A stretch of DNA of 64,000 bases from Oscillospiraceae bacterium. GTDB taxonomy: Bacteria > Bacillota > Clostridia > Oscillospirales > CAG-272. The stretch is from the NCBI GenBank assembly GCA_015065105.1, contig SVQZ01000001.1, positions 40,996 to 104,995 of the forward strand. The letters run 5' to 3'. Below, piece after piece: positions 2,291 to 50,807 of the stretch (its first letter is position 1; each line of letters opens with the position of its first letter). Under the pieces are notes generated by a model, which saw only the letters and a list, made by a program, of their open reading frames with translations, made no database searches and had not been told where the DNA came from. A program made the translations under genes and the position numbers.

Positions 2291-2298
2291 GTTTATTT

Positions 2299-2377
2299 AT
2301 AGGAAACAGCTCCACTTCATGTGAGCTGTTTACATCAAGGAACGGAGCGTGATTCGACTCGCCCGGCGTCGCATTTT
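2299..2377 (+). repeat. divergent member of the terminator-docked repeat family
   Basis: Starts ATAGGAAACAGCTCCACTTC (cf. ATAGGAAATTGCTCCACTTC at 33226); ends GCCCGGCGTCGCATTTT. Confidence 0.55.
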
Positions 2378-28597: not shown

Positions 28598-31500
28598 TTG
28601 GCTAAAACTTTTTTAGAGGTATTTTCAAAATATAGACCCGATGACGTAACGGCAGGGCTTCTCAATTCATCCGAGATCAAGGGCAGGCGGGCTGACGTTG
28701 AAAAAAGGATGCTTGAGGTTGACGTTGCCTTTTCACAGATAATTTCAAAGAATATTCTTTACCGTATCGAGGAAGAAATAGCGAAGGCATACGATCTTCG
28801 TATGATGCGTATCTGTCCTAAATATAATGAAGAGCTGTTCTACGTTGACTATATAAAGGAGATTCTTAAAGAGGCGTCGAGAAGCGCCTCTGTTTCTCGC
28901 GGATTTTTTAACGATTATCAATACAGGATCGACGGTAACGAAATAATTATAGACCTTGATTTCACAAACGGCGGTATAGAGCTTTTATATTCCGCCCAAA
29001 CAAATAAAGAGATCGAAAAGATCATTTTCAACGAGTTTGGTCTCCATTATGACGTTACATTAAGAAGGAGCGATGATGCAACCTTCGATTATGAAAGCTA
29101 CAGCCGCCGACAGATGGAGGAGCTTTCTAAATACATTCAGGAGATAGAGGCTGAACGTGAAAGAATACTTAATGCCCCTCCCGAGCTTACGGATACAGAG
29201 GATAAGGAGCCCGTATATACGGTAAACTCTACAGAGCTTGAAGAACCTGTACTCGAAAATCTTGAAAACGGACACATAAGAATAGGTCATATTACCGTTG
29301 ACATTTCAGAACCCGAATATTTCATGGGTGATCATATTCCCTTTGATATTATTCCTACTCCCATATCTTCCCTTACCGGCAATATGCGTAATATCTGCAC
29401 CATTGGGCGAATAGTTAACTTTGAGGCTAAACCGACGAGAAAAAACGACAAGCAGATAATCTCCTTTGGTATCACCGACGAGCAGGGCTCGATAACGGTA
29501 AAAGCAGTACTGCCCAATGAAGAGGCTGAGCCTCTTATGAAAGCTATATCAAAAACAAAATATAAGGAAAAACGCGGTACGATAAAGGTTGAGCTTTATT
29601 CAGGCGTTCTATGTGTTGTCGGAAACGTTAAGCAGGATTCCTTTGACGGTGAATTTACTCTCAATTTCTCCGATGCCTGTTCGGTCAAAGAGATAAAGAG
29701 AAGCGATGATGCCGAGGTAAAAAGAGTTGAACTGCACTGTCATACAAATATGTCAGCCATGGATGCTACCATCCCTCCGGGAACTCTTGTTGAGCTGGCG
29801 GCCTCCTGGGGACACAGAGCTATTGCGGTAACAGATCACGGTAATGTTCAGGGATTTCCCGAGGCAATGCTTGCCGCTGACGGACTCGCAAAAAAGGGTA
29901 TAGATTTCAAGGTAATCTACGGCATGGAGGCATATTACGTGGATGATACAGCGAGAGCGGTTTACGGTGATGCGAAGGCATCCCTTGACGATGAATTCGT
30001 TGTATTCGACCTTGAAACCACAGGTCTTTCCGCGACCTATAATAAGATAACCGAAATCGGCGCAGTAAAGGTAAAAAACGGCGGAGTCATTGACACCTTC
30101 AATACCTTGGTCGATCCCGAGGTTCCGATACCCGCTGATATCGTTGAATTAACAGGTATTACGGATGAAATGGTTAAGGGCGCTCCGAAATGTAAGGAAG
30201 CCTTGGTAAGCTTTCTTGAATTTTGCGGAGATGATATACTTATAGCTCACAACGCAACCTTTGACACCTCATTTATCCGTGCGGCTGCAAAGGAATATAA
30301 GCTTGAATTTAACAACACATATCTCGATACAGTACCGCTTTCGATGTACGTTAATCCTGAGCTTAAAAAGCATAAGCTGAATGTACTTGCAGATTATTTC
30401 AAGCTTCCGGAGTTCAATCATCACAGAGCCTGCGATGATGCTGAGATGCTTGCCAAAATATTCTTCTGTATGTGTAACAAGCTCAAATTAGAAGGTATTA
30501 CCGATTTTGATGCCATGAACAGAGCCATGGCAGACAGAGCCGATCCAAAAAAGCAGAGATCCTACCATATGATAATTCTCGCAAAAAATATGGTTGGATT
30601 AAAGAATCTTTATCATCTTATATCAAAGAGCTATCTTGATTATTATTATAAGAATCCCCGAATTCCCAAAACGCTTCTTGAGGAATACCGCGAAGGTCTT
30701 ATCATAGGCTCCGCCTGTGAATCCGGAGAACTCTATTCCGCAATTTTAAAGAATAAGAGTCACGAAGAACTTCTTGAAATCGCTGATTTTTACGATTATC
30801 TTGAAATTCAGCCCCTTTGTAATAATATGTTTATGCTTGATAAGGGTCTTGTGCCCGATATTGATGCTTTAAAGGCCATAAACAGACAGATAATAGATCT
30901 CGGCAAAGAGCTTGGTAAGCCTACCGTAGCTACCTGTGACGCGCATTTTGCGGACAAGCACCATGAGATCTACCGTAAGATACTCCTTAAATCAATGAAA
31001 TTTAAGGACGGTGACAGGGATACGGGCATATATCTGCGTACGACAGAGGAAATGCTGAAGGAATTTGACTATCTCGGAGAAGAATTAGCGTATGAGGTGG
31101 TTGTTGAAAATCCTAATAAGATAGCTGACATGACAGAAAAGATCAGAGCTATCCCCGAGGGTACATATACTCCCGAAATGGAGGGCGCTGAAGAGGATCT
31201 CCAGCGTATCTGCTGGGAAAGAGCAAAGAGTATGTACGGAGATCCCTTGCCCGAAATAGTAAGCGAAAGACTCGACAGAGAGCTTACTTCAATCATCAAA
31301 AACGGCTTTGCAGTGCTTTACATGATAGCACAAAAGCTTGTATGGTATTCGGAGGAGAACGGCTATCTTGTTGGTTCACGAGGCTCGGTTGGTTCGTCAT
31401 TCGTTGCAACAATGGCGGGTATAAGCGAGGTTAATCCGCTTGTGCCCCATTACAGATGTCCTAACTGTAAGCATTCTGAATTCTATACCGACGGTTCTAT

Positions 31501-33187
31501 AGGTTCAGGCTATGACTTACCCGATAAAGACTGCCCTCATTGCGGCACGCATATGATCGGAGACGGCCATGATATCCCCTTTGAAACGTTCCTCGGCTTC
31601 TACGGTGATAAATCCCCCGATATCGACCTTAATTTCTCGGGAGATGTTCAGGGTAAGGTTCATAAATATACCGAGGAACTTTTCGGGTCCGAAAACGTGT
31701 TCAGAGCCGGAACTATTTCCGCTCTTGCAGAAAAAACCGCCTTTGGTCTTGTAAAGAAATATGCGGAGGAAAAGGCTATCCCCCTCAACCGTTCCGAGGT
31801 AGAGCGTCTCAAAAACGGATGTGTCGGTGTTAAAAAAACTACCGGTCAGCATCCCGGCGGTATTATCGTTGTACCGAGAAAATACGACGTTACCGACTTT
31901 ACTCCGGTTCAGCATCCTGCAGACGATGCCAATTCAAGTATAATAACAACACACTTTGCATTCTCATATCTTCACGATACCATCCTTAAGCTTGATGAGC
32001 TCGGACACGATATGCCGACAAAGTATAAAATGCTCGAGGAATATTCGGGCTTAAGCGTTCTCGACGTTCCTATGAACGATAAAAAGGTCATGAGTCTATT
32101 CCTTAACACCGAGGCATTAGGTATTACTGCAGAGGAATGCGGAGCTCCCGTAGGAAGCTTCGGTCTCCCTGAATTCGGTACACGATTTGTTCAGCAGGTT
32201 ATAGTTGACACAAAGCCTAAATCATTCTCCGATCTTTTACAGCTCTCCGGTCTTACTCACGGTACAGACGTTTGGGCAGGTAACGGTGATGAGCTTATTA
32301 AAAACGGTACCTGTACGATATCAGAGCTTATCGGAACCCGTGACTCGATCATGACCTATCTTATCTACCACGGTGTAGAAAAGAGTATGTCCTTTAAGAT
32401 AATGGAGGACGTACGAAAGGGTAAGGGCTTAAAGCCTGAATACGAGGAGGCTATGAGAGCGCAGGAAATTCCCGACTGGTATATCGCTTCCTGTAAAAAG
32501 ATCAAATATATGTTCCCTAAGGCACATGCCGCGGCTTACGTTACTTCGGCAATACGCCTTGCATGGTTCAAGGTCTATTATCCTGTTGTGTTCTATGCGG
32601 CATTCTTTACCGTTGCGCCCTCCGGATTCGATGCTGAGATAGTCGGAAATGGAAGAGCTAACGTTGCATTCACCTTAAAGGATATAGACGAAAGAAGAAA
32701 GAAAAAACAGACCGAAAAGAAGGAAGAGGATATGATTCCTGCACTTCAGCTTGCAAACGAAGCAATGGCGCGAGGTGTAAAATTCCTGCCGATAGACCTA
32801 TATAAGTCTCACGCATTTAAATTTCTGCCCGAAGGAGAGGACGGAATACGTATGCCCTTTAATGCTTTACCCGGCTTAGGTGATGCCGCGGCTGAAAAGA
32901 TCATGGAGGTATGTGTATCGGGTGATCTTCTTTCTATCGAGGATCTTCGCCAGAGAGCGGGTCTTTCAAAATCCATAATAGAGATTTTAAGACGAAATAA
33001 AGCCTTTACAGGGCTTTCCGAGACCAACCAGGTATCTTTGCTTGATAACCCGGGTATCGGCTCAAACGAGCACGAAAATGAGCTTGAACGCAAGCGTAAC
33101 GAGCTCTTAAAAAATACCGAATCACAGCTGCAAAAAAACTATGACTATGATGCAGTTGACGATGATTCGCAGATCTCATTATTCTAA
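28598..33187 (+). CDS. polC: DNA polymerase III PolC-type
   Basis: RVELHCHT PHP, DLETTG exonuclease, GSRGSVGSS, PDIDLNF, YMFPKAHA; C-terminal QISLF. Confidence 0.97.
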   Translation: MAKTFLEVFSKYRPDDVTAGLLNSSEIKGRRADVEKRMLEVDVAFSQIISKNILYRIEEEIAKAYDLRMMRICPKYNEELFYVDYIKEILKEASRSASVSRGFFNDYQYRIDGNEIIIDLDFTNGGIELLYSAQTNKEIEKIIFNEFGLHYDVTLRRSDDATFDYESYSRRQMEELSKYIQEIEAERERILNAPPELTDTEDKEPVYTVNSTELEEPVLENLENGHIRIGHITVDISEPEYFMGDHIPFDIIPTPISSLTGNMRNICTIGRIVNFEAKPTRKNDKQIISFGITDEQGSITVKAVLPNEEAEPLMKAISKTKYKEKRGTIKVELYSGVLCVVGNVKQDSFDGEFTLNFSDACSVKEIKRSDDAEVKRVELHCHTNMSAMDATIPPGTLVELAASWGHRAIAVTDHGNVQGFPEAMLAADGLAKKGIDFKVIYGMEAYYVDDTARAVYGDAKASLDDEFVVFDLETTGLSATYNKITEIGAVKVKNGGVIDTFNTLVDPEVPIPADIVELTGITDEMVKGAPKCKEALVSFLEFCGDDILIAHNATFDTSFIRAAAKEYKLEFNNTYLDTVPLSMYVNPELKKHKLNVLADYFKLPEFNHHRACDDAEMLAKIFFCMCNKLKLEGITDFDAMNRAMADRADPKKQRSYHMIILAKNMVGLKNLYHLISKSYLDYYYKNPRIPKTLLEEYREGLIIGSACESGELYSAILKNKSHEELLEIADFYDYLEIQPLCNNMFMLDKGLVPDIDALKAINRQIIDLGKELGKPTVATCDAHFADKHHEIYRKILLKSMKFKDGDRDTGIYLRTTEEMLKEFDYLGEELAYEVVVENPNKIADMTEKIRAIPEGTYTPEMEGAEEDLQRICWERAKSMYGDPLPEIVSERLDRELTSIIKNGFAVLYMIAQKLVWYSEENGYLVGSRGSVGSSFVATMAGISEVNPLVPHYRCPNCKHSEFYTDGSIGSGYDLPDKDCPHCGTHMIGDGHDIPFETFLGFYGDKSPDIDLNFSGDVQGKVHKYTEELFGSENVFRAGTISALAEKTAFGLVKKYAEEKAIPLNRSEVERLKNGCVGVKKTTGQHPGGIIVVPRKYDVTDFTPVQHPADDANSSIITTHFAFSYLHDTILKLDELGHDMPTKYKMLEEYSGLSVLDVPMNDKKVMSLFLNTEALGITAEECGAPVGSFGLPEFGTRFVQQVIVDTKPKSFSDLLQLSGLTHGTDVWAGNGDELIKNGTCTISELIGTRDSIMTYLIYHGVEKSMSFKIMEDVRKGKGLKPEYEEAMRAQEIPDWYIASCKKIKYMFPKAHAAAYVTSAIRLAWFKVYYPVVFYAAFFTVAPSGFDAEIVGNGRANVAFTLKDIDERRKKKQTEKKEEDMIPALQLANEAMARGVKFLPIDLYKSHAFKFLPEGEDGIRMPFNALPGLGDAAAEKIMEVCVSGDLLSIEDLRQRAGLSKSIIEILRRNKAFTGLSETNQVSLLDNPGIGSNEHENELERKRNELLKNTESQLQKNYDYDAVDDDSQISLF

Positions 33188-33225
33188 ATAAAAAAAGTAC
33201 GGAGTGATCCGTACTTTTTTTATTT
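33187..33225. terminator. bidirectional terminator polC/ybaK
   Basis: AAATAAAAAAAGTACGGA-GTGA-TCCGTACTTTTTTTATTT perfect inverted repeat. Confidence 0.9.
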
Positions 33226-33314
33226 ATAGGAAATTGCTCCACTTCGGGTACTGAAGAAACAAGCCTATGTAAGGTTCACGCCCGATCATCGGTGCGGGCC
33301 GGCGCCCGCTTTTT
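33226..33314 (+). repeat. terminator-docked dispersed repeat, full copy A
   Basis: Aligns end to end with the reverse complement of 47841-47926 (about a dozen differences in ~88 nt, counted by eye). Confidence 0.85.
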
Positions 33315-33315
33315 G

Positions 33316-33786
33316 TTATTCTATCGGTTTTGAAACGTCTATCCATTCCTTGGCATTTGAATAGCTTTCAAGCTCGTCGATAGTAAGCTCGATTGCGCTG
33401 TTCGAACTGCCTGCGGCAGGGAATACAGTCTCGAAACGTTTCATAGATATATCAAGGTAAACCTTTATACCTTCGTTGATGCCAAAGGGACAAACACCGC
33501 CGACTCCGTGGCCTATATTAGGCTCTACCTCGTCAAAGGAAAGCATTTTCGCCTTTGTATGGAACTGTGCCTTATATTTTGAGTTATCTATCTTTGCGTC
33601 TCCTGCTAAAAGGATAAGTATTACTGCATCGTCAACCCAAAAGGACATAGTTTTTGCTATTCTTGCAGGCTCTGTGCCTGCCGCCTTTGCCGCAAGCTCA
33701 ACAGTTGCGCTCGATTCTTCAAATTCAAGAATCCTTGTTTCGATATTAAACTGTGAAAAATATGATCTGACTCTTTCGATAGACAT
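33316..33786 (-). CDS. YbaK/EbsC family aminoacyl-tRNA deacylase-like protein
   Basis: SSATVELAA, IAKTM, GGVCPFG, AAGSSNSAI. Confidence 0.9.
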   Translation of the reverse strand: MSIERVRSYFSQFNIETRILEFEESSATVELAAKAAGTEPARIAKTMSFWVDDAVILILLAGDAKIDNSKYKAQFHTKAKMLSFDEVEPNIGHGVGGVCPFGINEGIKVYLDISMKRFETVFPAAGSSNSAIELTIDELESYSNAKEWIDVSKPIE

Positions 33787-33795
33787 ATAAGATCC

Positions 33796-35580
33796 TTATC
33801 TGAGCTTGTACTGAACAGAAAGCTCTTTATACTTTTCGCTGAATTCTTCGTTTTCGATAGATTTGAGAGCGTTGAGATATTCGTGGGTATCGTAAGCGTT
33901 CTGTACTACCTCTATCATTGTAACCGCGATATTAGAGCAATGGTCGGAAACTCTTTCGAAATTCGTGAGTATATCGTTCAAAACAAAGCCGTGCTCTATC
34001 GTACATTCTCCGACCTTAAGACGGGTTATATGTCTTGATTTTATGGAAGCAAGAATTGTATCGATAACCTGTTCGAGAGGCTCTACCTCTTTCGCAAGGG
34101 AAAGGTCGTTTTTAATGTAAGCTTCCGTTGTAAGCTTTACAATATCGGTCAATGCTCTGTGAGCAACCTTGAGATCTGCCATTGCATCATCGGTAAACTT
34201 AAGGTTCTTTTCATGCATTTCACGGGCAGCCTTGATAAGATTAACCGCATGGTCGCCGAGACGCTCAAAATCACCGATAGAGTGAAGCATACGCGATACC
34301 TCTGCGTTATCCTTATCGGAAAGCTCATTTCTTGAAAGCTTTACAAGGAAGGTGCCGAGCTTGTCCTCGTATTTATCAATATCACTTTCTATAGTCATTA
34401 CGTCGTTAGCTCTGCGTTCATCGTAATTACCGCACAAATTGATTGCAGAAATAATGGCGGTCTCTGCTTTACTTGCCATTTCAATGCAACGGTTTTTACA
34501 TTCTGAGATGGCGAATGCGGGTGTGTTAAGAAGTCTGTCGTCGATAAACGTATATTTTTCTTCCTTACCGGGCTTATCCTTGATAATGATATTTGCAATT
34601 TTAACAAGAGCTTTCTGGAAGGGAAGAAGAAGTACCGTTGTAAAAAAGTTAAATATAGAGTGGGCAACTGCAATCTTAAACGGAGTCACGTTTGAGGCTA
34701 AGAAATCGATTATTACTTCACTTCTAAAGATATAATAAACGGGAATGTATATAAGCAATACTATCGATGTACCGATAAGATTGAACAAGATATGTATTAC
34801 TGCAACTCGCTTTGCGTTCTTATTAACTCCGATACTGGAAATAAGAGACGTTACACAGGTACCGATATTCTGACCCATTATGATCGGAATAGCCATACCA
34901 AAGGATACCATACCCGTCGTGTTTGCCAGATTCTGTAAAATAGCAACAGAAGCAGCAGAGCTCTGAATGATACCGGTGAATACGGCACCAACCAAAACAC
35001 CGATCAAGGGGTTACTGAATACAGAGATTATTGTTTCGAACTTTTCGGGATTCGATTCTGCAAAGGCTGCAATAGGCTCCATTGCGTCCCCCATAAGCTC
35101 CATACCGAACATCAAAACGGCAAATCCGATTAAAATATTACCTGTATCCTTCTTCTTAGTTGTTTTACCAAGCATTATAAGAGCAATACCGATAAATGCA
35201 ACAAGAGGAGAAAAGTTTGCGGGCTTCAAAAGGGCTATCCATCCGTCCGACTCAATACCCGAAAGAGAAAGGATCCATGCAGTAAGAGTAGTACCTATAT
35301 TGGAACCCATGATTACACCAACGGTACTGCCAAGAGACATAATACCCGAGTTTACAAGACCAACAAGCATTACTGTAAGTGCTGAGGATGACTGTATTGC
35401 AATCGTAATACCTGCACCGAGAACCAAGCTCTTTAACCAATGGGATGTTGCACTCTGAAGGGCATTCTGAAGCTTACCGCCGGAAAGCTTTTCGAGACCC
35501 GAGGACATTACATTCATACCAAAGAGGAAGAAACCAAGGCCACCTAACAACATAAATGCCTGAATGAAAATTTGTACCAT
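33796..35580 (-). CDS. Na+/Pi cotransporter with PhoU domains
   Basis: Two QSSS/QSSA repeats, GSNIGTT/GQNIGT, C-terminal PhoU (DFERLGDHAVN, NFERVSDHCSNIA); start uncertain. Confidence 0.9.
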   Translation of the reverse strand: MVQIFIQAFMLLGGLGFFLFGMNVMSSGLEKLSGGKLQNALQSATSHWLKSLVLGAGITIAIQSSSALTVMLVGLVNSGIMSLGSTVGVIMGSNIGTTLTAWILSLSGIESDGWIALLKPANFSPLVAFIGIALIMLGKTTKKKDTGNILIGFAVLMFGMELMGDAMEPIAAFAESNPEKFETIISVFSNPLIGVLVGAVFTGIIQSSAASVAILQNLANTTGMVSFGMAIPIIMGQNIGTCVTSLISSIGVNKNAKRVAVIHILFNLIGTSIVLLIYIPVYYIFRSEVIIDFLASNVTPFKIAVAHSIFNFFTTVLLLPFQKALVKIANIIIKDKPGKEEKYTFIDDRLLNTPAFAISECKNRCIEMASKAETAIISAINLCGNYDERRANDVMTIESDIDKYEDKLGTFLVKLSRNELSDKDNAEVSRMLHSIGDFERLGDHAVNLIKAAREMHEKNLKFTDDAMADLKVAHRALTDIVKLTTEAYIKNDLSLAKEVEPLEQVIDTILASIKSRHITRLKVGECTIEHGFVLNDILTNFERVSDHCSNIAVTMIEVVQNAYDTHEYLNALKSIENEEFSEKYKELSVQYKLR

Positions 35581-35687
35581 TTCATGTTCGACGAATATCG
35601 TCTTTACCTCACTTGAATTTTGTATTGTCGCATACGCTTTAATTATACAATATTTTAGTTGTTTTGGCAATAGAAAACAAAAGAATT

Positions 35688-36212
35688 TTATTTATTTACA
35701 ACTGATTTAATTTTTGTACCAATTAGTGAAACAACGGTTATCTTTATAATATCTCCGGGGATAAAGGGAAGGATCATCAATATTACGGCATTGATATCGC
35801 CGCTCTTAAGCCATAACAGATACCAAAACGCTCCGACTGCATATAAAACAAAGGTTGAGATAAGCATTATAATAAATTTCAGCAAGCTATTAATCGTTTT
35901 TTTAAAGCCTGCGGTAAGTATTATAACAAAAGGTATATATCCTAAAATAAAACCGCCTGAAGGGGATAAGAGCTGTGTTATCCCGCCCGTGAATGACGAA
36001 AACACGGGAAGTCCCGTAAATCCGCAGGCAACGTATATTATTACCGAGAATACAGCAACCTTCGGGGTATGTATGTAAGCGTACAGATAAATAAGAAGAG
36101 TGCACAGGGTTATCGGAACAACACCAAAGGGAAGGGCTATGGGTGACAATACGCACAATAGTCCTGCCGATAATGCAGTATATACAAGATTTTTAAGTTT
36201 AGTTCTTTTCAT
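35688..36212 (-). CDS. bioY: biotin transporter BioY
   Basis: [30 protein letters not shown]. Confidence 0.88.
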
Positions 36213-37704
36213 TTGTAAGCGTACGGGAAACGGCATCTCTCCAGCCCTTTAAGTATTTATCTTTTAATTCACTATCCATAACGGGTGTAAATTTCTTTGC
36301 TATAGATTTAAGAGCTTTGATCTCGTCGGTATTCTTATAATAGCCTGTAGCAAGTCCTGCAAGGTATGCCGCGCCTAATGCCGTTGATTCGATGCACGCG
36401 GGACGGTTGATCTCAACACCAAGAATATCCGCCTGGAACTGCATCAAAAGATCGTTTGCACAGGCTCCTCCGTCAACGTTCAGGCTTTGCATTCTTATAC
36501 CTGCCGATCTTTCCATAGCTCTCAAAATATCATGACTTTGGTAGGCTATGCTCTCAAGACCCGCACGTACAATATGGCTTTTATTTGTACCTCTTGTAAG
36601 GCCCGTTACAGTACCCTTTGCGTATTGATCCCAGTAGGGCGCGCCAAGTCCTGTAAAGGCAGGAACTATATAAACTCCTGCGTTATCCTGAACCTTTGAA
36701 GCCTCAAGCTCAGAATCCGCCGCAGAGCTGATGAATTGCATCTGATCGCGAAGCCATTGTATTACTGCGCCTCCGACAAATACAGAGCCTTCAAGAGCAT
36801 AGGTTACTTTACCGTCAATACCCCATGCAATTGTTGAAACAAGACCGTCATTGTTGATATGAGGCTTACCGGCTGTGTTGAGTAAAAGAAAGCAACCTGT
36901 TCCGTAAGTATTTTTGGCTTGTCCCTCATCAAAGCAGGTCTGACCGAAAAGTGCTGCCTGCTGGTCGCCTGCTATACCCGATATAGGTATATCTGTTGTA
37001 AGTCCGAAGAGTGAAGTGGTACCGAAAATGCCGCTTGACGGACAAACTGCCGGAAGCATAGATTCGGGTATATCGAGCAATTCGAGAAGCTCCTTGTCCC
37101 AAGCAAGCTCGTTAATATTATAAAGCATCGTTCTCGAAGCATTTGAATAGTCTGTTGCATGAACTCTGCCTTCTGTAAGATTCCAGAGAAGCCATGTATC
37201 GACTGTACCGAAAAGAAGCTCTCCCTTTTCCGCCTTCTCACGGGCGCCCTTTACAGAATCGAGTATCCATTTGATTTTAGTACCTGAAAAGTACGCATCG
37301 ATCACAAGTCCCGTTTTATTCTTTATTATATCGGTATAGCCTTCCTGCTTTAGTCTGTCGCAATATTCAGCGGTTCTTCTGCATTGCCATACGATAGCGT
37401 TATATATAGGTCTGCCTGTGTATTTGTCCCATACTACCGTTGTTTCTCTTTGGTTTGTTATTCCGATCGAATCTATCTCATTTGCTCCGATACCGCTTTT
37501 CTCAAGAGCTTCCTTGGCTACTGTCAACTGAGTTTGCCAGATCTCTAAGGGATCGTGCTCTACATAGGAGGGAAGAGGGAATATCTGTTTGTACTCCTTT
37601 TGTGCAAGGCTGATGATATTTCCGTTTTTATCAAATATTATACATCTTGAGCTTGTAGTACCCTGATCGAGTGCCATTATATATTTTTTGTTCATTTTAA
37701 ACAC
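36199..37704 (-). CDS. glpK: glycerol kinase
   Basis: [46 protein letters not shown]. Confidence 0.96.
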
Positions 37705-38577
37705 CTAATTTATGTATGTTACAGCATTGGGATAGACCGATATTTCTATCTTGTCGGTTTCTTCTATCTCACCGTCGGCGCATATCGTTTTTGTATTTTC
37801 GACGGTAACGTTTTTACATTTAAAATATTTAACGATATCCTTGAATTTAGGATCAAGCTCTTCTGTTTTACTGTCTATATAGCTTCCCTTACGGTATGCT
37901 GAAACAAGGGAAGCAAATTTAACTCTTGAGATTTTTGATACTATAAGCATATCAAGAAGCCCGTCATCAGAAACGGCAAGAGGTAATGCCTTAAAACCTC
38001 CGCCGCAGTAGGGAAGATTACCTACACAGCAAAGAAGACATTTTTCGTAAACTATATGCTTCTTATCATTCCTATCTATAATAGTTATCTTAAAATCCTG
38101 GCCTAACTTGTGAGAAAGTACGTTCAATACTCCTAAAATATAAGCAGAGCTTCCAGAAATAAGCTTTTTGTTCTTATAAAGTCCCGTTTTCTCGGCAACA
38201 TCGCAGTCGAAGCCGATATTTATCATATTAACAGCGTAGGTTCCGTTATACTTTATAAGATCTATCTTTCGTTCTCCCTTTTCATTTTCAAAAGCACGTC
38301 TGAAATCATTACCGCTGCCTGTAGGCATTACGCTGAACGCGGCTCTGTCCTGTGCATTTGCTTCCATGATTCCGTTTACGACCTCGTTTATCGTACCGTC
38401 GCCGCCGCATACGATAAAACGAAGACGGCCTTCGTTATTCTCACAGCATTCCTTAACGTAGCGTGTTGCGTCCCCTACAGCCTTTGTGGTATATACAATA
38501 GCATTCGTCTTTTTAAGCTCCGCTTTTACAGCATCGCCGTGTCCTGCTTTGGGATTGATTATCTGAAATATTTTCAT
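37705..38577 (-). CDS. YegS/DAGK family lipid kinase
   Basis: NPKAG, GGDGTINEV, PTGSGNDF, DGE. Confidence 0.88.
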   Translation of the reverse strand: MKIFQIINPKAGHGDAVKAELKKTNAIVYTTKAVGDATRYVKECCENNEGRLRFIVCGGDGTINEVVNGIMEANAQDRAAFSVMPTGSGNDFRRAFENEKGERKIDLIKYNGTYAVNMINIGFDCDVAEKTGLYKNKKLISGSSAYILGVLNVLSHKLGQDFKITIIDRNDKKHIVYEKCLLCCVGNLPYCGGGFKALPLAVSDDGLLDMLIVSKISRVKFASLVSAYRKGSYIDSKTEELDPKFKDIVKYFKCKNVTVENTKTICADGEIEETDKIEISVYPNAVTYIN

Positions 38578-38695
38578 TGTGAAACTCCTTGTGGTTATTT
38601 CGATTTTATTATACAACATTTATTTTAATTTATCAAGATTATCCGATATATTTGATATCGCAAAAAATTTCATAAAAAATTCATAGGTAAATATG

Positions 38696-38724
38696 TTGAC
38701 TTAAAAATAAAACTGATATATAAT
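38696..38724 (+). promoter_or_regulatory. sigma-A promoter of guaB
   Basis: TTGACT-N17-TATAAT. Confidence 0.7.
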
Positions 38725-38730
38725 AATTAA

Positions 38731-40227
<1,497 letters not shown>

Positions 40228-40313
40228 TCAAAAGCTCTCAAACGAGAGCTTTTCTATTTTACTGCATTTAGAAGAAATAAAGAACGAAGGCTCCTTGTGG
40301 AGCCTTCTGTTAA

Positions 40314-41798
40314 TTATGCAAAGGGATTTTCGGTCTTATAAGGAAGTGAAGCAGGCTGATTATATGCTATATCCTTAACTCCGAGAAGCTTAACAACCTC
40401 AAAGAGGGTCTTGCCGCAGTTAGCAAATCCGACACCGGAATGGTGAGGATAGTTCTTTTCAATAAGAACGTGACGGTAGAAACGAGGCATTTCGGGAATA
40501 GCGATAATACCTATAGTCCCGAAGGAATGGGTGGGCATATCAAGGGTCTCACCTTGAGCAATATAAGAGGTAAGCCTACAGTCTGCAGTACCCTGAAGTC
40601 TGAAGATGGTAACGGGAGAGGTGATAAGATCTCCTTCTGCTGTACCTCTTGTGATAAAGGGCTCGCCTTCGGGCTCAAGGTCACGCTTCATGATCCTCTG
40701 ATAACCCATGGTAGGCTTCTTTAAGAAGCAGATAGAACCGTTACCGCAATGGAATCCCATAAACATTTCGTTAGGCTTATATCCGTTAGCCTTATCCTTG
40801 TATGCTTCATAAAGATCCTTGGGAACTGTGTTGTTGATATCGAGAAGGGCAGGAGCCTTACCTGTAGCAAGGTAGAGCATATACTCGGTAAGAGTACCGT
40901 AGATATCAACCTCGCAGGAAACGGTGATACCCTTAGCCGAGAGTCTGCCGTTTACGTAGCAGGGAACTATCTTGAATGCAGTCTGGAAGGAGGGCCAGCA
41001 CTTATTGGCAAAGATAACGTGCTCACAAGCACCTCTGTTGGCTTCAGCCCAGTCAAGAAGGGTAACCTCATACTGTGCAAGTCTTGCAAGTGCATCGGGA
41101 TATGTAACACAACCGCCGTAATCTGCAAGCATTTCTTCAACTATTGCAGGAATTCTTTCGTCATTTTCATGCTCATTAAAGGAACAGAAAAGGTCAAGCT
41201 CGCTGTTTTCCTGAATTTCCACACCGAGATCGTAAAGAGGCTTGATGGGAGCATTACAAGCAACAAAATCCATAGGTCTGGGACCGAAGGAAATGATCTT
41301 AAGAGAAGAAAGGCCTATAATAACTCTTGCGATAGGCTCGAACTCTGCGATAGAAGCTGCAGTTTCGTCTGCTGTACCAACAGGCTCTTCGGGGATGAAT
41401 ACCTTGAGACCGCGCATATTGAGGTTATAGGACGCGTTGAGCATACCGCAGTATGCGTCGCCTCTGCCGTCGAAGAGATCATTCATAGATTCCTCGGCTG
41501 CAGCACAGAACATTCTGGGACCCCAGAATTTCTGAGCCATCATAGTTTCGGGGGTTTCGGGACCGAAATTTCCGAGGTAAACTATAAGAGCGTTTACGTC
41601 ATTTGCCTTGAGGTCATCCAGAGCCTTCAATGCGTCATTTTCGTTTTCAACGAGTACAGGGCAGTTGTAAAGCTCTAAACCAAGCTTATCGCATTCAGCC
41701 TTAACAGCATTTCTTCTGTTTGTACTGAGCTCCTTGGAAAAACAGCTTCTGCTTACCGCAACAATACCCATTTTAACTTTTACGTCGTTAGTAAACAT
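40314..41798 (-). CDS. L-fucose/L-arabinose isomerase family protein
   Basis: GNFGPE, RGDAYCG, CEVDIYG, GFHCGN, YPHH; 4 bp downstream of ribulokinase. Confidence 0.8.
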   Translation of the reverse strand: MFTNDVKVKMGIVAVSRSCFSKELSTNRRNAVKAECDKLGLELYNCPVLVENENDALKALDDLKANDVNALIVYLGNFGPETPETMMAQKFWGPRMFCAAAEESMNDLFDGRGDAYCGMLNASYNLNMRGLKVFIPEEPVGTADETAASIAEFEPIARVIIGLSSLKIISFGPRPMDFVACNAPIKPLYDLGVEIQENSELDLFCSFNEHENDERIPAIVEEMLADYGGCVTYPDALARLAQYEVTLLDWAEANRGACEHVIFANKCWPSFQTAFKIVPCYVNGRLSAKGITVSCEVDIYGTLTEYMLYLATGKAPALLDINNTVPKDLYEAYKDKANGYKPNEMFMGFHCGNGSICFLKKPTMGYQRIMKRDLEPEGEPFITRGTAEGDLITSPVTIFRLQGTADCRLTSYIAQGETLDMPTHSFGTIGIIAIPEMPRFYRHVLIEKNYPHHSGVGFANCGKTLFEVVKLLGVKDIAYNQPASLPYKTENPFA

Positions 41799-41802
41799 AG
41801 TT

Positions 41803-43461
41803 TTACTCCTTTATATTCTTAATATTTTTCATTATTTTATTTTTACCTCTGCCGAAATAATCAAACAGAGTGCAAAATTCATCATAAAGCTTATCGTAGA
41901 TCAGTTTATTTTTGAGATCAGGCTTATATACGACATCCTTTAATTTGCCCATTTTTTGCGCGGCTTGAGCAACCGTATCATATCCGCCGGATCCCTTACC
42001 TGCGGCAACTGCACCGAATATCGCCGCTCCGAGCGCCGCCGCCTGAGGCGAGCCCGAAACCTTAATATCACAGCCTATAACGTCGCAATATAATTGCATT
42101 ACAAAAGGGTTCTTTTCTGCAATTCCTCCCGCGGCATGAATTATATCTATATTCAGACCGTATTTACGGAAATTTTCGATTATCATTCTTGCTCCGTAGG
42201 CTGTTGCTTCTACCAAGGCTCTGAAGATATCCTCAGGTTTTGTTGAAAGATCCATACCTACTATCGTACCCGAAAGATCGGCTCCGCCTTCAAGAGCTCT
42301 GTTGCCGTTCCACCAATCAAGAGCTATAAGATGATTTTCTCCCGGCTCAAGCCTTGATGCAAGATCGAATATATACTGCATTTCTGAAATTCCAAGTTCA
42401 TCGGCTTTTTTCTTATACGAATAGGGAAGCATATTTTCAAGATACCATGCGAAGTGATCTCCCATGCAAGCTTGACCTGCCTCATAGCCGAAATATCCCG
42501 GTATCATACCGTCTTTAACGTAACCTGCAATTTCTTTTACATCAAGCTCTCTTTCGTCAAGAGTCATAAAGCAGGCTGATGTTCCTAATATTAACAGCAT
42601 TTCACCCGGTTTTGTAACCTTTGCAGCGGGAACTGTGCAATGGCCGTCGATATTACCTACAGCAACCGCTGTTCCTTCCTGCAGACCTAATCTTTGTGCC
42701 ATTTCCTTGGTTAACGATCCGGCTTTAGTACCAATAGATTGTACCGGAGCGTTGAGTTTTTCCTGAACAAGATTCTTTAACCGTACGTCAAGCTCTTCAA
42801 AAAACAAGGGATCGGGATACCCGTCGTCCGAATGCCATAATGCCTTATAGCCTGAGGTACAGGAGCTTCTGACCTGCTTTCCCGTTAACTGCCATACTAT
42901 CCAATCAGCCGCTTCTATAAAATAATCTGCGCTGTTATAGACCTCAGGAGCGTTATTCAGAATATGCATCACCTTAGGAACAAGCCATTCGGGGGAAATA
43001 TTGCCGCCGTAACGCTCTATAAATGCCATACCCTTGCTTCTCGCGTGGTTGGTTAATAAAGCCGCTTCCTCAACCGATGAATGATCCTTCCATAATTTAA
43101 CGTAAGAGCAGGGAAGAGATGAAAATCTTTCATCAAAACAAAGAGGAGTACCGTCTGAATAAACAGGAATCAGCGTACATGACGTAAAATCAATGCCTAT
43201 TCCAATTATGTCCGATTTATGAACGCCCGATCTCTTAATAATTTCAGGAACGCAATGCTCAAGGACGTCTATGTAATCATGGGGATGCTGTAAAGCATAA
43301 TCACGAGGTAACTTAATGTCCGAATTATATAAAACTTTATCCATTACTCCGTGTTTATACTCAAGAACCTCTGTAGCAATCTCGGCACCGTTTGCAATAT
43401 CAACCAAAACAGCCCGTCCTGATAAGGTTCCGTAATCGATTCCAATTGTATATTTAGACAT
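41803..43461 (-). CDS. araB: ribulokinase (FGGY family)
   Basis: GIDYGTLSGRAVL, GIDFTSCT, KLWKDH, LDWWNGNR, EATAYG. Confidence 0.88.
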   Translation of the reverse strand: MSKYTIGIDYGTLSGRAVLVDIANGAEIATEVLEYKHGVMDKVLYNSDIKLPRDYALQHPHDYIDVLEHCVPEIIKRSGVHKSDIIGIGIDFTSCTLIPVYSDGTPLCFDERFSSLPCSYVKLWKDHSSVEEAALLTNHARSKGMAFIERYGGNISPEWLVPKVMHILNNAPEVYNSADYFIEAADWIVWQLTGKQVRSSCTSGYKALWHSDDGYPDPLFFEELDVRLKNLVQEKLNAPVQSIGTKAGSLTKEMAQRLGLQEGTAVAVGNIDGHCTVPAAKVTKPGEMLLILGTSACFMTLDERELDVKEIAGYVKDGMIPGYFGYEAGQACMGDHFAWYLENMLPYSYKKKADELGISEMQYIFDLASRLEPGENHLIALDWWNGNRALEGGADLSGTIVGMDLSTKPEDIFRALVEATAYGARMIIENFRKYGLNIDIIHAAGGIAEKNPFVMQLYCDVIGCDIKVSGSPQAAALGAAIFGAVAAGKGSGGYDTVAQAAQKMGKLKDVVYKPDLKNKLIYDKLYDEFCTLFDYFGRGKNKIMKNIKNIKE

Positions 43462-43486
43462 AACATTCTCCTTGATTATTTATATA

Positions 43487-43515
43487 ATTATATCATAAGG
43501 AATTTTATTTTACAA
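43487..43515 (-). promoter_or_regulatory. sigma-A promoter of the araB-isomerase operon
   Basis: Minus strand TTGTAA-N17-TATAAT with TG extension. Confidence 0.65.
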
Positions 43516-43553
43516 GAAGATTTTCATTATTTATATAAAAAAGATGAAAACAG

Positions 43554-43717
43554 AATCGAAAGGAATTTTTTTGATGAGTATATATACGTCTGACAGATTT
43601 AAAATCAAAAGGATTTTTTTGTGACATATAAAGTATCGTTAAATAAAAATAAAATCGAAAGGATTTTTTTAAACGTATCGATCATAGCTGATAAGTATTT
43701 AAATCGAAACGTATTTT
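43554..43717. repeat. four degenerate ~20-bp repeats (AAAATCGAAAGGATTTTTTT) at 49-50 bp period
   Basis: ATC cores at 43555, 43604, 43654, 43703; AAAATC/GATTTT internal dyad. Confidence 0.7.
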
Positions 43718-43904
43718 ATAAAACGTCAGTAAATAATTAAATTCTGATATAAGAATTGTAATTTAATATAGTTTAACATTCCGCTTTTTAAGCTTCAAAT
43801 CATAACAGATACCCAAAATTATATCTCGTCCTTATTTTAATAAATTCTTTCACTTCCCTCAATTATATAAAATTTGCATTTTATATAATTTGATATTAAA
43901 TTTT

Positions 43905-43928
43905 ACAGGGCAGTTTCAACTGCCCCGT
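43905..43928 (-). terminator. terminator of the phosphatase cluster
   Basis: GGGCAGTT-TC-AACTGCCC hairpin right after the stop. Confidence 0.65.
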
Positions 43929-43930
43929 TA

Positions 43931-44710
43931 TTAATATAATGCTTTTCCTTCCCATGCTTCATCGGGTACAAGGTCAAGTATCTTTAATATTGTAGGAGCA
44001 ACATCCTTGATGCTGACGTCCTTGAGTACCGTACCCGCTTTAAAATCCTTACCTCTTATCATTAGCGGTATCGTAACATCCCGTTCGTCGCAATGATCGT
44101 GGTCATGACCGCTATGGTCTGATACAATGATAACCGTAGTATTTTCATCTGCTGCAGCATCAACAAGACGGTAAATTTCATCCCAAACGAAATTGCATGC
44201 TTCGATGTATTTTTCGCTCATCCATCCAAAGCCATGACCGTGGGAGTCTATCAGATCGTGATGAAAGAACGTAAAGCTGGTAAAATTATTATTGAGATAA
44301 TCGATAGCTTTATCGGTAAGCTCCTTTGTTGCTTTCTCAATGCCGTTATAATAACCGCTTACAAAGCAATCGTATGCCATAGATCCGGGTTTTGCAAGAT
44401 CTCTTAATTCACCCCAGGTATAAAACATCGCACTTCGTCTGTCTCTGCGATGAAAAATATCGGTCATTGCTTTAACCTTGTTATAATAACCGGGGTCATA
44501 GTTATCAAAGCAACCGTGCTTTTCCGGATCTACAGATTTAAAAAGCGACACGTGACAAGGCATGGTTATTGCAGGTATTACTGTTTTTGCATCAAGAGCA
44601 TATGCACAGTCCTTCATAAATTCCTTAGCTTTCGGTACGTGTTCGATCGCCGCAGGATCCATTCCGTCCGTAACAATAAGAATTACTTTCTGATCATTTA
44701 CTATATTCAT
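43931..44710 (-). CDS. alkaline phosphatase superfamily (nucleotide pyrophosphatase/phosphodiesterase-like), paralog 2
   Basis: TDG, P.ITMPCH (Thr nucleophile), D.HGH..GW, SDHSGHD.DH; ATG 44710 after GGAGG. Confidence 0.85.
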   Translation of the reverse strand: MNIVNDQKVILIVTDGMDPAAIEHVPKAKEFMKDCAYALDAKTVIPAITMPCHVSLFKSVDPEKHGCFDNYDPGYYNKVKAMTDIFHRRDRRSAMFYTWGELRDLAKPGSMAYDCFVSGYYNGIEKATKELTDKAIDYLNNNFTSFTFFHHDLIDSHGHGFGWMSEKYIEACNFVWDEIYRLVDAAADENTTVIIVSDHSGHDHDHCDERDVTIPLMIRGKDFKAGTVLKDVSIKDVAPTILKILDLVPDEAWEGKALY

Positions 44711-44729
44711 TTTTACCTCCGTTAAATAA

Positions 44730-45506
44730 TTATAAAATCGATCTGCCGTCCCATTCCTCATCGGGAGCTATACCTAAAAGAGTTGTTACGGTTGGTGCTA
44801 TATCCAAAATTGATATATTTTCAAGAGCACTTCCCTTTTCAAAGCGTTTTCCCTTTATTATAACGGGTATCCTTGTATCACATTCGCTTCCGTGATCATT
44901 GTCATGTCCCGAATGATCGGATATAACGATAATAGTGGTTTCATCGTCTGCGGCATCAGCCACTTTATATATTTCGTCCCAAACGAAACGTACCGCATCA
45001 ATATATTTTTTACTCATCCAGCCATATCCGTGTCCTACGTCATCGATCAGGTCATAGTGCAGGAAGATGAACGACGCTTCATCATTGCTCATAAAATCAA
45101 TAACACTATTTGTAAGCTTTTTTACTGTTTCCCTGTTACCGTAAAAATCCTTGTTAATATAACAGGAATAAGCAATATCATTAGGTCTTGTAAGATATTT
45201 CAGCTGTTCCCATGCATAGAACATGGCGGATTTACGGTCGTTAAGACGTAAAACATCGCAGATAGTACGGTAATCCTTATCAGGCTTTCTATATCCGTTT
45301 GTGGTTATGGTATGCTTTGACGGTTCAACAGACTTAAAGAGAGAAAAGTGACAAGGCAACGTATCCGAAGGCATTACCGAGCGTGCATTCATGCAGGAAG
45401 CGGAACCCTTTAAAAATTCTTTTGCTTTCGGTATATACTCAACAGCATCGGGATGCATTCCGTCAGTTAATATTAAAATAATCTTATCGTTGATCGCTGA
45501 AGCCAT
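44730..45506 (-). CDS. alkaline phosphatase superfamily protein, paralog 1
   Basis: TDG, PSDTLPCH, DDVGHGYGW, SDHSGHD.DH. Confidence 0.85.
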   Translation of the reverse strand: MASAINDKIILILTDGMHPDAVEYIPKAKEFLKGSASCMNARSVMPSDTLPCHFSLFKSVEPSKHTITTNGYRKPDKDYRTICDVLRLNDRKSAMFYAWEQLKYLTRPNDIAYSCYINKDFYGNRETVKKLTNSVIDFMSNDEASFIFLHYDLIDDVGHGYGWMSKKYIDAVRFVWDEIYKVADAADDETTIIVISDHSGHDNDHGSECDTRIPVIIKGKRFEKGSALENISILDIAPTVTTLLGIAPDEEWDGRSIL

Positions 45507-45517
45507 ATTTTACCTCA

Positions 45518-46216
45518 TTAAACATAATATTCCTCAAGAGTATCAAGGCATATACAGGAAAGGGGATTTCCGAAGACAGCACCGCAGTCGATAGCTATAT
45601 GGAAATTCTTTCGGTATATCCTGCCTTTATTGGAAGGATCTATATAAAAAGTAGGAGTATGTCCCGTTACAAGATATTTATCCTCAAAATACACTCTGTT
45701 ATAATTACAGCGGTACCATACAAGCTCCTTTATGCTGTAATCCTCAAGCGGCTTTCCCTGTGAAAAATTATCAAGGCCTGCATGAACCAAAAGGAAATCT
45801 CTTCCGTTCACCGTAAGCTCCTTATATACAATAAAATCGTTAATGTAATCAAGAATACGCTTTCTTTTAACATAGTTAAGGGCGGTGAATGCCTTATATG
45901 TCGGATATCCTCCGTTATCCGTCCAATGCGTAAGGCTTCTGTAAACCTTATCGCTGATCTGAGAAGAGTAGTTTTCTTCGGTTATCTCAACGTTAAGCGC
46001 TTCAAGGACTGTAAATGCCATAAGCTCATGATTACCGAGCATGGGTATCACATTTCGCCGCTTCATCATATCAAGCAGTATATCTATTCCGTTATCTCCC
46101 CTGTCGATAACGTCGCCTAAAATATATAAAGTATCCTCGGAGCTGAAATCGATCTTTTCAAGCATAGCAAGATATTTATCATAACATCCGTGAATATCAC
46201 TCATAACGTAATTCAT
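45518..46216 (-). CDS. calcineurin-like metallophosphoesterase (PPP/PrpA-like)
   Basis: SDIHG, GDVIDRG, GNHE, HAG, GHTP, IDCG. Confidence 0.9.
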   Translation of the reverse strand: MNYVMSDIHGCYDKYLAMLEKIDFSSEDTLYILGDVIDRGDNGIDILLDMMKRRNVIPMLGNHELMAFTVLEALNVEITEENYSSQISDKVYRSLTHWTDNGGYPTYKAFTALNYVKRKRILDYINDFIVYKELTVNGRDFLLVHAGLDNFSQGKPLEDYSIKELVWYRCNYNRVYFEDKYLVTGHTPTFYIDPSNKGRIYRKNFHIAIDCGAVFGNPLSCICLDTLEEYYV

Positions 46217-46431
46217 ATATCTACTCCTTTCTTAATTAATATTATAACAATTTTACTTCCTTATGTCAATATTTATATAAAGTACCGCAGACCCCAGCGA
46301 ATTTCTACATTTTTTTGATAACGTAGGAGTAGATTTTTCTTATAATATAAAAAATTGTATTTTATTATTTACTTTGAAAAAATTTTGTGTTATAATAAGA
46401 TGATTATGAAAATATTCGGAGGTCTTACACA

Positions 46432-47178
46432 ATGAAAGCAATAATTATGGCTGCCGGCAAAGGCACAAGATTACAGGAGCCCGGCAATCCTAAGCCCAAG
46501 GTACTTCGCGAAGCAAACGGACGTCCCCTTTTAGACTACGTTTTCGATGCAATGCCTATGATAGAAAAAAAGGATATTACTGTTGTAACAGGCTTCATGA
46601 GCGAGCTTGTTGAGGACGCATTCAAGGATTACGGATGCTCCTTCCAGCGTCAGGGCGACGATGCATACGGCACAGGATATGCCGTTATGTGCGGTATAGA
46701 AAATGCTAATTTCAATGATTATCACGGAGATATCCTTATCGTTAACGGAGATGCTCCCCTTACCGCTCTCGAAACTGTTAAAGGTATCATAGCACAGCAC
46801 GAAGCAGAAGGCAACCTTGCAACCCTTCTTTCTGCTGACACACAGTTAAAGCTTCCCTACGGAAGAATCATCCGTGACGAAAACGGCAACGTTATTGATA
46901 TCCGCGAGGAAAAGGATTGCACAGAGGAAGAAAAGGCTATCACCGAGCTCAACGTTGGTATGTACGTATTCAATGCCGATGCTCTCCGAGAGGCTCTTAA
47001 GGTTATCGACTGCAATAATGCCGCAGGAGAATATTACATAACCGACGTTCCTCCCGCTATTGCAAGAATGGGTAAAAAGGTCAACGCTTATATTACTACT
47101 GATGACGATGAGCTTATCGGCGTAAATACACCCGAGGATCTCGCGACTGTTGAAAAGATCCTTAATTCAAGGAAATAA
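46432..47178 (+). CDS. GlmU-like sugar-phosphate nucleotidyltransferase (N-terminal domain only)
   Basis: MAAGKGTR..PKVL, GTGYAV, NGDAP, YGRIIR, NAAGEYYITD; no left-handed beta-helix domain. Confidence 0.85.
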   Translation: MKAIIMAAGKGTRLQEPGNPKPKVLREANGRPLLDYVFDAMPMIEKKDITVVTGFMSELVEDAFKDYGCSFQRQGDDAYGTGYAVMCGIENANFNDYHGDILIVNGDAPLTALETVKGIIAQHEAEGNLATLLSADTQLKLPYGRIIRDENGNVIDIREEKDCTEEEKAITELNVGMYVFNADALREALKVIDCNNAAGEYYITDVPPAIARMGKKVNAYITTDDDELIGVNTPEDLATVEKILNSRK

Positions 47179-47199
47179 TTATAATATTTAGGGGATATT

Positions 47200-47817: not shown

Positions 47818-47840
47818 TCCATCTTCCCTTTGATCCACTG

Positions 47841-47926
47841 AAGAGCTGGTGCAGGCCCGTACCGATTATCGGGTTGAACCTTACACAAGCTTGTTTTTCA
47901 GTACCCGAAGTACACCAATTTCCTAT
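47841..47926 (-). repeat. terminator-docked dispersed repeat, full copy B
   Basis: Reverse complement ATAGGAAATTGGTGTACTTCGGGTACTGAAAAACAAGC... matches 33226-33314. Confidence 0.85.
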
Positions 47927-47931
47927 ACATC

Positions 47932-47960
47932 AAAAAAGACGGTACAAAACGTACCGTCTT
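47932..47960. terminator. bidirectional terminator
   Basis: AAGACGGTAC-AAAAC-GTACCGTCTT with flanking A-tract. Confidence 0.8.
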
Positions 47961-48393
47961 AATTTTTTCTTATTATATACTCTAAAAATCTTATTAACCA
48001 AGGTATATTTCTTACAGCTATAAACATCAAAAATGTCCCTACCCATATAAGTAAAGAAGGAATACTGTACATATATTTTAATATTCGTTTGAATATTCCA
48101 ACTTTAAATACAAAGGCAAGATTAAGAAAGATCAAAGTAAGTATAAGATATATGATTCCGAAAAATACTACGGGATTATACTTAAATGCTTCGATAAAAT
48201 TAAAAAGCAGAAAATTCTTTACACACCTTGTTCCTCCGCAGGTAGCACATTGCAATCCGAAAAGAGTCCATGTACAGGGTCTTTGTGTTGAAAGCATTTT
48301 TAAGCTGAGCCATCTTAAAAGGATCCATGCGGGAATCGTGAGAATATCACAGATAAAAACAAGGAGTCTCGCGTTTTTATTTAAAAATTTCAA
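47959..48393 (-). CDS. DUF2752 family membrane protein
   Basis: PC.....G.QCATCGGTR.......F..AF.YNP motif. Confidence 0.8.
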   Translation of the reverse strand: MKFLNKNARLLVFICDILTIPAWILLRWLSLKMLSTQRPCTWTLFGLQCATCGGTRCVKNFLLFNFIEAFKYNPVVFFGIIYLILTLIFLNLAFVFKVGIFKRILKYMYSIPSLLIWVGTFLMFIAVRNIPWLIRFLEYIIRKN

Positions 48394-50407: not shown

Positions 50408-50422
50408 ATACGGGTAGTTGAT

Positions 50423-50787: not shown

Positions 50788-50807
50788 ATAGAAATTGCTC
50801 CGCTTTT
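50788..50807 (+). repeat. minimal (ends-only) member of the terminator-docked repeat
   Basis: ATAGAAATTGCTCCGCTTTT directly after hairpin 50757-50782; resembles the left and right ends of copy A fused. Confidence 0.55.

Follow-up and report, generated by a model that had tools for sequence, protein, structure and literature searches.

What is the compact repeat that stands, in one Oscillospiraceae genome, between the terminator of one gene and the stop codon of the gene converging on it? The question arises from a 64,000-nucleotide stretch of DNA (the window, on contig C39) in which an earlier note had described four such sites, reading them as undescribed terminator-associated mobile DNA, perhaps carried by an HUH/Y1 enzyme or another recombinase, or as a 3′-UTR RNA family. 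By surveying the source genome (G000; a 97.7% complete metagenome-assembled genome (MAG) of 64 contigs, 2.47 Mb and 42.8% G+C) together with its relatives, we found that the repeat is a previously undescribed, genus-restricted, terminator-docked non-autonomous element. As to how it spreads, we give about even odds that it is a transposase-less mobile element working like IS200/IS605.

We began from the copies in the window (Table 1). In copy 1, ATAGG begins at 33226, 4 nt past the 7-T run of the GTACGG/CCGTAC hairpin, a terminator that looks bidirectional because an A run precedes its hairpin. The unit comprises a 5′ module, ATAGGAAATTGCTCC (33226-33240), hairpin I (~33244-33285, UCGGGU...GCCCGA), the linker CATCGGT, hairpin II (33294-33309, GCGGGC-CGGC-GCCCGC) and a closing TTTTT (33310-33314), and the stop codon at 33316-33318, 2 nt beyond its end, belongs to the convergent YbaK-like gene. 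Copy 2, whose hairpin II has decayed to ACGGGCCTGCACCAGC, sits between the terminator of a DUF2752 gene (47959-48393, minus strand; Pfam), which overlaps the stop region of that gene, and the stop of a DivIVA-like gene (47200-47817; an assignment at 27.2 bits, just below the cut-off of 28). The near-identity reported for these two copies amounts to 84.1% over 88 nt (E 1.7e-19, BLASTN against the 2.47-Mb genome). The divergent copy reported at 2299 was likewise recovered by profile search: its ATAGG is followed by a GCTCC...GGAGC hairpin and a degenerate hairpin II (CTCGCCCGGCGTCGC), hairpin ACGGTGTGA/TCACACCGT (2264-2288) with a T-rich run precedes it, 2395 is the end of the convergent SpoU methylase gene, and by its sequence the unit resembles subfamily 1, described below.

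Table 1 Element copies in the window and the host features that adjoin them
Feature	Position	Strand	Description	Basis
Divergent unit	2292..2377	+	Matches model positions 5-99	Second-round profile, 24 bits
DNA polymerase III alpha gene	28598-33187		ORF; upstream gene of copy 1	Pfam
DNA polymerase III alpha terminator	33197..33221	+	GTACGG/CCGTAC hairpin + 7 T	Direct reading
Copy 1	33226..33314	+	Full subfamily 0 unit	Second-round profile, 104 bits
Copy 2	47841..47926	-	Subfamily 0 unit	Second-round profile, 68 bits
Host terminator upstream of copy 2	47932..47958	-	Hairpin GACGGTAC/GTACCGTC + 6 T	
5′ module fragment	50788..50805	+	~18 nt, ATAGAAATTGCTCCGCTT	Direct reading

The fourth site, earlier taken for a copy that keeps both ends, turned out to hold a 5′ fragment only. 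It lies behind hairpin AGGACTT/AAGTCCT (50760-50779) and TTTGATTT and went undetected by nhmmer with either profile (first or second round); because the open reading frame (ORF) of an M20 peptidase ends just past it at 50809 (stop 50809-50811), the supposed 3′ end is coding sequence. The shared placement stood at all four sites: ATAGG or ATAGA starts 4-5 nt after a T-rich run behind a hairpin, and every junction is convergent, with incoming genes identified by Pfam as SpoU methylase, YbaK-type tRNA_edit, DivIVA-like and M20 peptidase. In an independent sequencing run (X8), contigs stop inside copy 1 and one contig spans copy 2 with two base changes. The contigs of four DNA runs showed no empty allele across window positions 31001-51000, and the two flanks of copy 1 lie apart in all relatives examined.

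The expectation that four sites in one window imply many in the genome was right. BLASTN across the source genome returned 48 matches of at least 80 nt, a first profile built from these found 120 and a second-round profile found 206 matches at 146 loci (E up to 0.01), 161 of which span at least 75 of the 102 profile positions. The loci divide into 106 single units, 28 doublets, 8 triplets, one array of four, two of five and one of six; arrays run head to tail with a period of ~95 nt and mix subfamilies. Single-linkage clustering of 144 near-full-length units at 75% identity defined these subfamilies, with clusters of 64, 33, 21 and 5 units, two pairs and 17 singletons.

All units share one order of parts: a T-run, AAT(T/G)T, the near-invariant ATAGGAAATTGCTCC, a long imperfect hairpin, a linker whose last bases are GGTGC, and then a GC-rich hairpin with a second T-run behind it. 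Each carries the conserved 5′ leader (K)TATAGGAAATT before the long hairpin; a unit is marked at its left by (K)TATAGGAAATTGCTCC and at its right by GGTGC, the GC hairpin and the T-run. At 45-55 nt the left hairpin is long, and its sequence differs by subfamily (UCGGGC...GCCCGA in 0, GCUCCAUU...AAUGGAGC in 1 and UCCGCC...GGCGGA in 2), and the terminal hairpin occurs as GCGGGC-CGGC-GCCCGC, GCGCC-CGGC-GGCGC, GCGGCA-ACU-UGCCGC or GCGGGC-GCU-GCCCGC; despite these differing sequences, each of the three main subfamilies places hairpins close to both of its ends, on the same strand. The earlier statement that the element has neither terminal inverted repeats nor a target duplication held. In an alignment of 96 units inspected by eye, ATAGGAAATTGCTCC has no reverse-complement partner at the 3′ end, and flanks show no locus-specific duplication (6.49 versus 6.39 +/- 0.13, p 0.24; 51 loci, 2000 permutations), in a test that is weak, both flanks being T-rich. 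A 21-codon reverse-strand ORF in subfamily 0 was set aside on reading the consensus sequences, being absent from subfamilies 1 and 2. Separately, units of subfamily 0 that are otherwise near-identical carry a hypervariable tetranucleotide at positions 14-17 from ATAGG (for example window 33239-33242), with states including CCAC, GTGC, TCGA, CTGA, TTGC and ACAC; we found no covarying partner for it in the unit or the flank.

Genome-wide, element loci are enriched behind terminators, as the window had suggested. A T-run precedes 118 of the 119 loci at which the 5′ end of the first unit is intact, and at 87 of these 119 a hairpin of at least 5 bp abuts the T-run, compared with 315 of 2000 random intergenic positions. 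The upstream hairpins are host sequence, because they differ between loci; the exception is the last hairpin of a preceding unit. A stricter scan found 620 terminator-like sites in the genome, 97 at element loci and 340 free in intergenic DNA. When non-coding sites were sorted by the approximate pattern T4+(A/G)AT, 29 of 125 with a hairpin were occupied versus 18 of 572 without one. Directly after the T-run, the left flank of the element reads A (70%), A (53%) and T (69%), against 39, 26 and 49% at free terminators. The enrichment at terminators could stem from tolerance, through selection, instead of targeting.

Gene context bears on whether the element instead serves its host. We called genes with a crude home-made ORF caller that misses small genes (such as the DUF2752 gene by copy 2), and by these calls the 132 loci with two neighbours comprise 47 convergent, 40 co-oriented tandem, 34 antisense to both neighbours and 11 divergent. 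Convergent junctions are thereby enriched (47 of 132, against 204 of 1813 junctions genome-wide), and at them the median distance from element to incoming stop is 10 nt. Such placement favours a structured RNA with a host function, either a 3′-UTR or read-through RNA or a back-up terminator that insulates convergent genes, with copies retained for their usefulness, an explanation that we nonetheless consider unlikely. It would account for the canonical GC hairpin and T-run that close each unit in the same sense as the upstream terminator, and for an architecture kept by three subfamilies with unrelated hairpins, in which pairing is possible between two conserved stretches, the 5′ UUGCUCC and the linker GGUGC. 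The 34 antisense loci count against it. There the unit lies between a gene stop and a hairpin flanked by A and T runs, so unit polarity tracks the hairpin and T-run, not the direction of transcription.

Folding gave a similarly divided picture. Of 144 units, 97 have a more stable fold on the top strand than on the bottom under RNA parameters and 109 under DNA parameters, and the top strand is the more stable in 32 of the 33 units of subfamily 1; the fold is strand-specific in subfamilies 1 and 2, as a functional RNA would have it. Against an RNA, the mean fold z-score relative to shuffles is only -1.4, and there is next to no covariation within subfamilies (compensatory cells 0, 1 and 6; broken cells 21, 25 and 15). 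What a mutual-information scan picked up was mainly subfamily structure. Nor do the units have a visible conserved -35/-10 promoter in front of them, since each locus has its own hairpin upstream. Truncation or decay affects many units, and the element is confined to one genus. The search for a catalogued family agreed with the earlier view of the element as undescribed: no Rfam family reached its gathering score on it in the window or in 101 kb holding ~25 units, and matches around copy 1 were at chance level (E at least 0.097). Elsewhere in the window, Rfam models marked riboswitches of the SAM-I (73.3 bits) and cobalamin (37.2 bits) classes and a tRNA (at 11982-12065, 6500-6651 and 50423-50495), and in contig C28 a T-box leader (L060 7389-7621).

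A mobile element is better supported by the comparison of copies and of orthologous junctions. One pair of 85-nt cores on different contigs is identical, and subfamily 0 includes 14 pairs from separate loci with identities of at least 97%. Orthologous junctions, whose comparison the earlier note had proposed, differ in presence and absence among related species at four sites, two of which are not at terminators. At C28:50490 the source genome carries a unit where its relative G001 has 19 nt and G003 has a unit of another subfamily; units in L019, L025 and L003, from related genomes, match empty source-genome sites at C47:17426, C28:55020 and C37:7820. The filled and empty members of each pair are ~80% diverged and either T-run may belong to the element, so the exact ends are not fixed. 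Three pairs fit insertion after TTAAT or TTATT, and on that reading the unit runs from (K)TATAGG through the T-run behind the last hairpin; they also permit boundaries that assign the 5′ T-run to the unit. Two further 20-kb synteny stretches offered no usable empty sites, because the contigs of relatives break at those junctions. Also in contig C28, a 1.8-kb stretch between two element loci of the same orientation (C28:52689-54742; L060 7689-9742) holds a 552-aa ORF (L060 7811-9469, minus strand), and G001 has ~300 unrelated bases in its place.

The same comparisons leave very little room for a history without transposition, in which old intergenic sequence spread through tandem duplication, recombination between terminators and gene conversion. 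The common tandem arrays and mosaic subfamilies would suit such a history, as would insertion boundaries that cannot be placed exactly. Opposed to it are the 146 separate loci with unique flanks, the identical or at least 97% identical cores on different contigs and the sites that are filled in one species and empty in another.

Which known mobile elements behave in this way? We examined the left ends of IS200-like elements in the same bacterial family, where TnpA was found in 23 of 121 genomes surveyed: one in G001 (L074), a remnant in the source genome and 19 loci from other genera (L092-L119, 19 used). Read by eye, they start directly behind a host hairpin and T-run, clearly in 20 of the 21 cases and weakly in the remaining one. 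Their left-end plan is a T-run, the 12-nt leader GTATAACGAAAA and a hairpin CCACGCG...CGCGTGG; at the right end a GC hairpin (CCACCCG...CGGGTGG or CCACCGG...CCGGTGG) is followed by an 8-9-nt T-rich tail such as ATATTTATT or TTTTGATT. Their left ends are of at least two types, one with GTATAACGAAAA and the CCACGCG hairpin and another with GGAAATAAA and a CCCCCGG hairpin. Similarly, subfamilies 1 and 2 of the element place a 12-nt leader, GTATAGGAAATT, before the foot of the left hairpin and end in a GC hairpin and T-run, and GTATAGGAAATT matches the leader of the G001 element, GTATAGTAAAAC, at 9 of 12 positions. One terminator is occupied in both genomes, by an IS200-like element in G001 and, at the orthologous place in the source genome, by a decayed unit of the 95-nt family. 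A 2026 survey reports terminator-like sequences as over-represented immediately upstream of insertion sequences, most strongly for IS200/IS605 (PMC13548323). The remnant in the source genome (C45:25283-25700) has an internally deleted tnpA, a terminator at its left and a tRNA gene abutting its right.

Transposase-less derivatives of IS200/IS605 are known in haloarchaea, where they are called PATEs. The element and IS200/IS605 both lack inverted ends and target duplications and carry, on one strand, a hairpin near each end, the left one preceded by a conserved short leader and the right one followed by a short tail. Like IS200/IS605, the element would insert in a single orientation 3′ of a short T-rich target. 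The element differs in its own hairpin sequences, its long left hairpin, a right end that recreates the target, arrays of up to six units and the absence of a tnpA with these ends. Because its hairpins are unlike the CCACGCG and CCACCCG hairpins of the resident IS200-like elements, the resident TnpAs need not recognize it. Orientation agrees with the sign of local GC skew at 93 of 138 loci in this fragmented assembly, no higher than the agreement of genes (1288 of 1899, 68%), so the lagging-strand bias expected for IS200/IS605 was not seen. Of the mechanisms that the earlier note had offered, mobilization by an HUH/Y1 enzyme fits best, given the copy number, single polarity, arrays, presence and absence between species, lack of inverted ends and duplications and the like-docked IS200-like elements. 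We therefore describe the element as working like an IS200/IS605 derivative and do not file it as a member, since no transposase with matching ends was found and the mobilizing enzyme is putative.

The putative cycle can be set out against IS608, for which one study describes top-strand cleavage with a target on the left side only and no DNA gained or lost, insertion 3′ of a tetranucleotide, cleavage sites 19 nt ahead of the left hairpin and 10 nt past the right one, and four guide bases before each hairpin that pair with the cleavage site (PMC3201880). By analogy, protein-less DNA units of ~95 nt would integrate, always in one polarity, immediately 3′ of a T-run that has A/G-A-T behind it, in practice mostly at the tail of an intrinsic terminator hairpin. 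They would probably move as single-stranded top-strand DNA with an HUH/Y1 transposase acting in trans ('peel and paste'). Because the unit ends in a GC-rich hairpin and a T-run of its own, each insertion would recreate the preferred target, and further insertions there may build the head-to-tail arrays with their 95-nt period. A side effect would be that occupied junctions carry at least two terminator-like hairpins in tandem. Following the IS608 rules, the bases before the left hairpin are predicted to select the target by pairing. In the resident IS200-like elements AAAA would pair with TTTT; in the element, AATT before the left hairpin possibly pairs with TTAA, a selection that fits the extra AA(T) in its left flank. 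A bolder form of this model would make the element a self-retargeted single-strand transposon, whose AATT guide shifted the target from TTTT to TTTTAA(T), and would make the host reliant on the arrays or their RNA as genome-wide transcription punctuation, with unit terminators that may insulate convergent genes or yield structured top-strand RNA. This we regard as a long shot.

We searched for the enzyme that such a cycle calls for, including the long copy enclosing TnpA(Y1), TnpB, IS110 or a reverse transcriptase that the earlier note had envisaged. The source genome holds no such copy: no element copy encloses a transposase, and its 5′-only modules are decayed units with no ORF behind them. 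No tnpA sharing the element's ends appeared in the source genome or in metagenome contigs, and the source genome has no intact IS200-type tnpA, only a RAYT-like gene besides the tnpA-deleted remnant. The RAYT-like gene (C1:15170-15724; locus L067 1135-1848) is the single Y1 gene of the genome and scores 26 bits with PF01797, above the cut-off. In G001, which is also element-rich, we found five Y1 matches, the best at 138.9 bits; there were none in G003, G004 and G009, and a weak one in G008. Among the seven incomplete genomes compared, clear Y1-family genes coincide with the element-rich ones, G000 and G001.

Could the RAYT-like protein itself be the mobilizer? In that case the element would be REP/BIME-like, maintained and spread by a domesticated Y1 host enzyme using the same chemistry, a possibility to which we assign a small share of the probability. 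REP/BIME elements are extragenic, high-copy and clustered at the 3′ ends of genes. The element shares these traits, bears hairpins as they do and resides in a genome with exactly one Y1-type gene; its 5′ (T)ATAGG also loosely resembles the GTAGG that opens the palindromes beside that gene. The gene, however, scores 56.5 bits with NF047646 (REP_Tyr_transpos), under the curated cut-off of 80, and its natural partner is a separate 28-nt palindrome, TGTAGGGAAGGCAGACCCTTGCCTTCC, which both flanks it and occurs within it. REP/BIME units (REPINs) are palindromes of 20-40 nt in inverted doublets, whereas the element has 95 nt, two different hairpins and direct order; in place of a 5′ GTAG palindrome flanking the RAYT gene, it starts with ATAGG and is absent beside that gene. 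RAYT-like genes are present in 20 of 41 sampled genomes of the bacterial family but the element in one genus only, and G007 has element copies with no match to the RAYT-like protein of the source genome. The TGTAGGGAAGGCAGACCCTTGCCTTCC palindrome forms REPIN-like inverted doublets in ~13 copies, with sites at C1:11932, 12774, 12960, 15295, 15490 and 15740, C52:12376 and 12493, and C57:93904-94219; two copies lie inside the RAYT-like open reading frame.

Still less probable is insertion at terminators by a retroelement or another recombinase, such as a class C group II intron derivative, target-primed reverse transcription or an IS110-type enzyme. The units do end in a T-run like the U-run of a terminated transcript, and class C group II introns are reported to target Rho-independent terminators, inserting just after them in sense orientation as the element does (PMC4748821). 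Yet the 97.7% complete source genome yielded no reverse transcriptase (PF00078), IS110 transposase (PF01548) or TnpB (PF07282), and group II intron RNA models stayed below threshold both in the window and in the 101 kb with ~25 units. The element has no ribozyme domains by Rfam and measures 95 nt against ~0.7-2 kb for such introns, and unit alignment shows 5′ ends that are sharply defined instead of variably truncated.

The range of the element is narrow. Among other members of the genus it was found in 6 of 9 genomes, and among other genera in none of 31; in a 401-genome sample of the family (97 genera), with two candidates scored per genome, it was present in the source genus only. A pattern scan of species genomes gave 29 stretches, 28 from one Oscillospiraceae bacterium MAG. 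Metagenome contigs contributed 14 loci, only one of them a weak near-full-length match (16.4 bits), and plasmid and phage collections contained no match.

Should the IS200/IS605-like account be correct, a tiny non-coding element would be living almost wholly behind terminators and rebuilding its own landing site, which would explain the origin of long terminator-like arrays. In one uncultured gut genus, the element occupies roughly one-fifth to one-quarter of terminator-like junctions. It offers a candidate guide/target pair for single-strand HUH transposition that is open to test. The element also breaks assemblies, as the contigs of the independent run show at copy 1, and is best masked when Oscillospiraceae MAGs are annotated; at its junctions, the counts of terminator predictors will be too high.

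The terminator habitat is shared by a second repeat of ~280-320 nt, with ~40 or more full or partial copies in the source genome, often at contig ends. Its ends, CAGCTTGTCGATAA and CGACAGTCTG, carry CAGnnTGTCGA in inverted orientation, and every insertion lies between two copies of a whole terminator hairpin; examples lie at window ~985-1262 (C39:41980-42257), C26:41560-41880, C57:86617-86895, C58:15520-15801 and C34:21207-21484. It is a different element from the 95-nt family, which has neither the inverted CAGnnTGTCGA ends nor the hairpin duplication. The two are often neighbours, as at C26:41451 and C57:86502, and the 95-nt element frequently stands directly behind the second of the hairpin copies.
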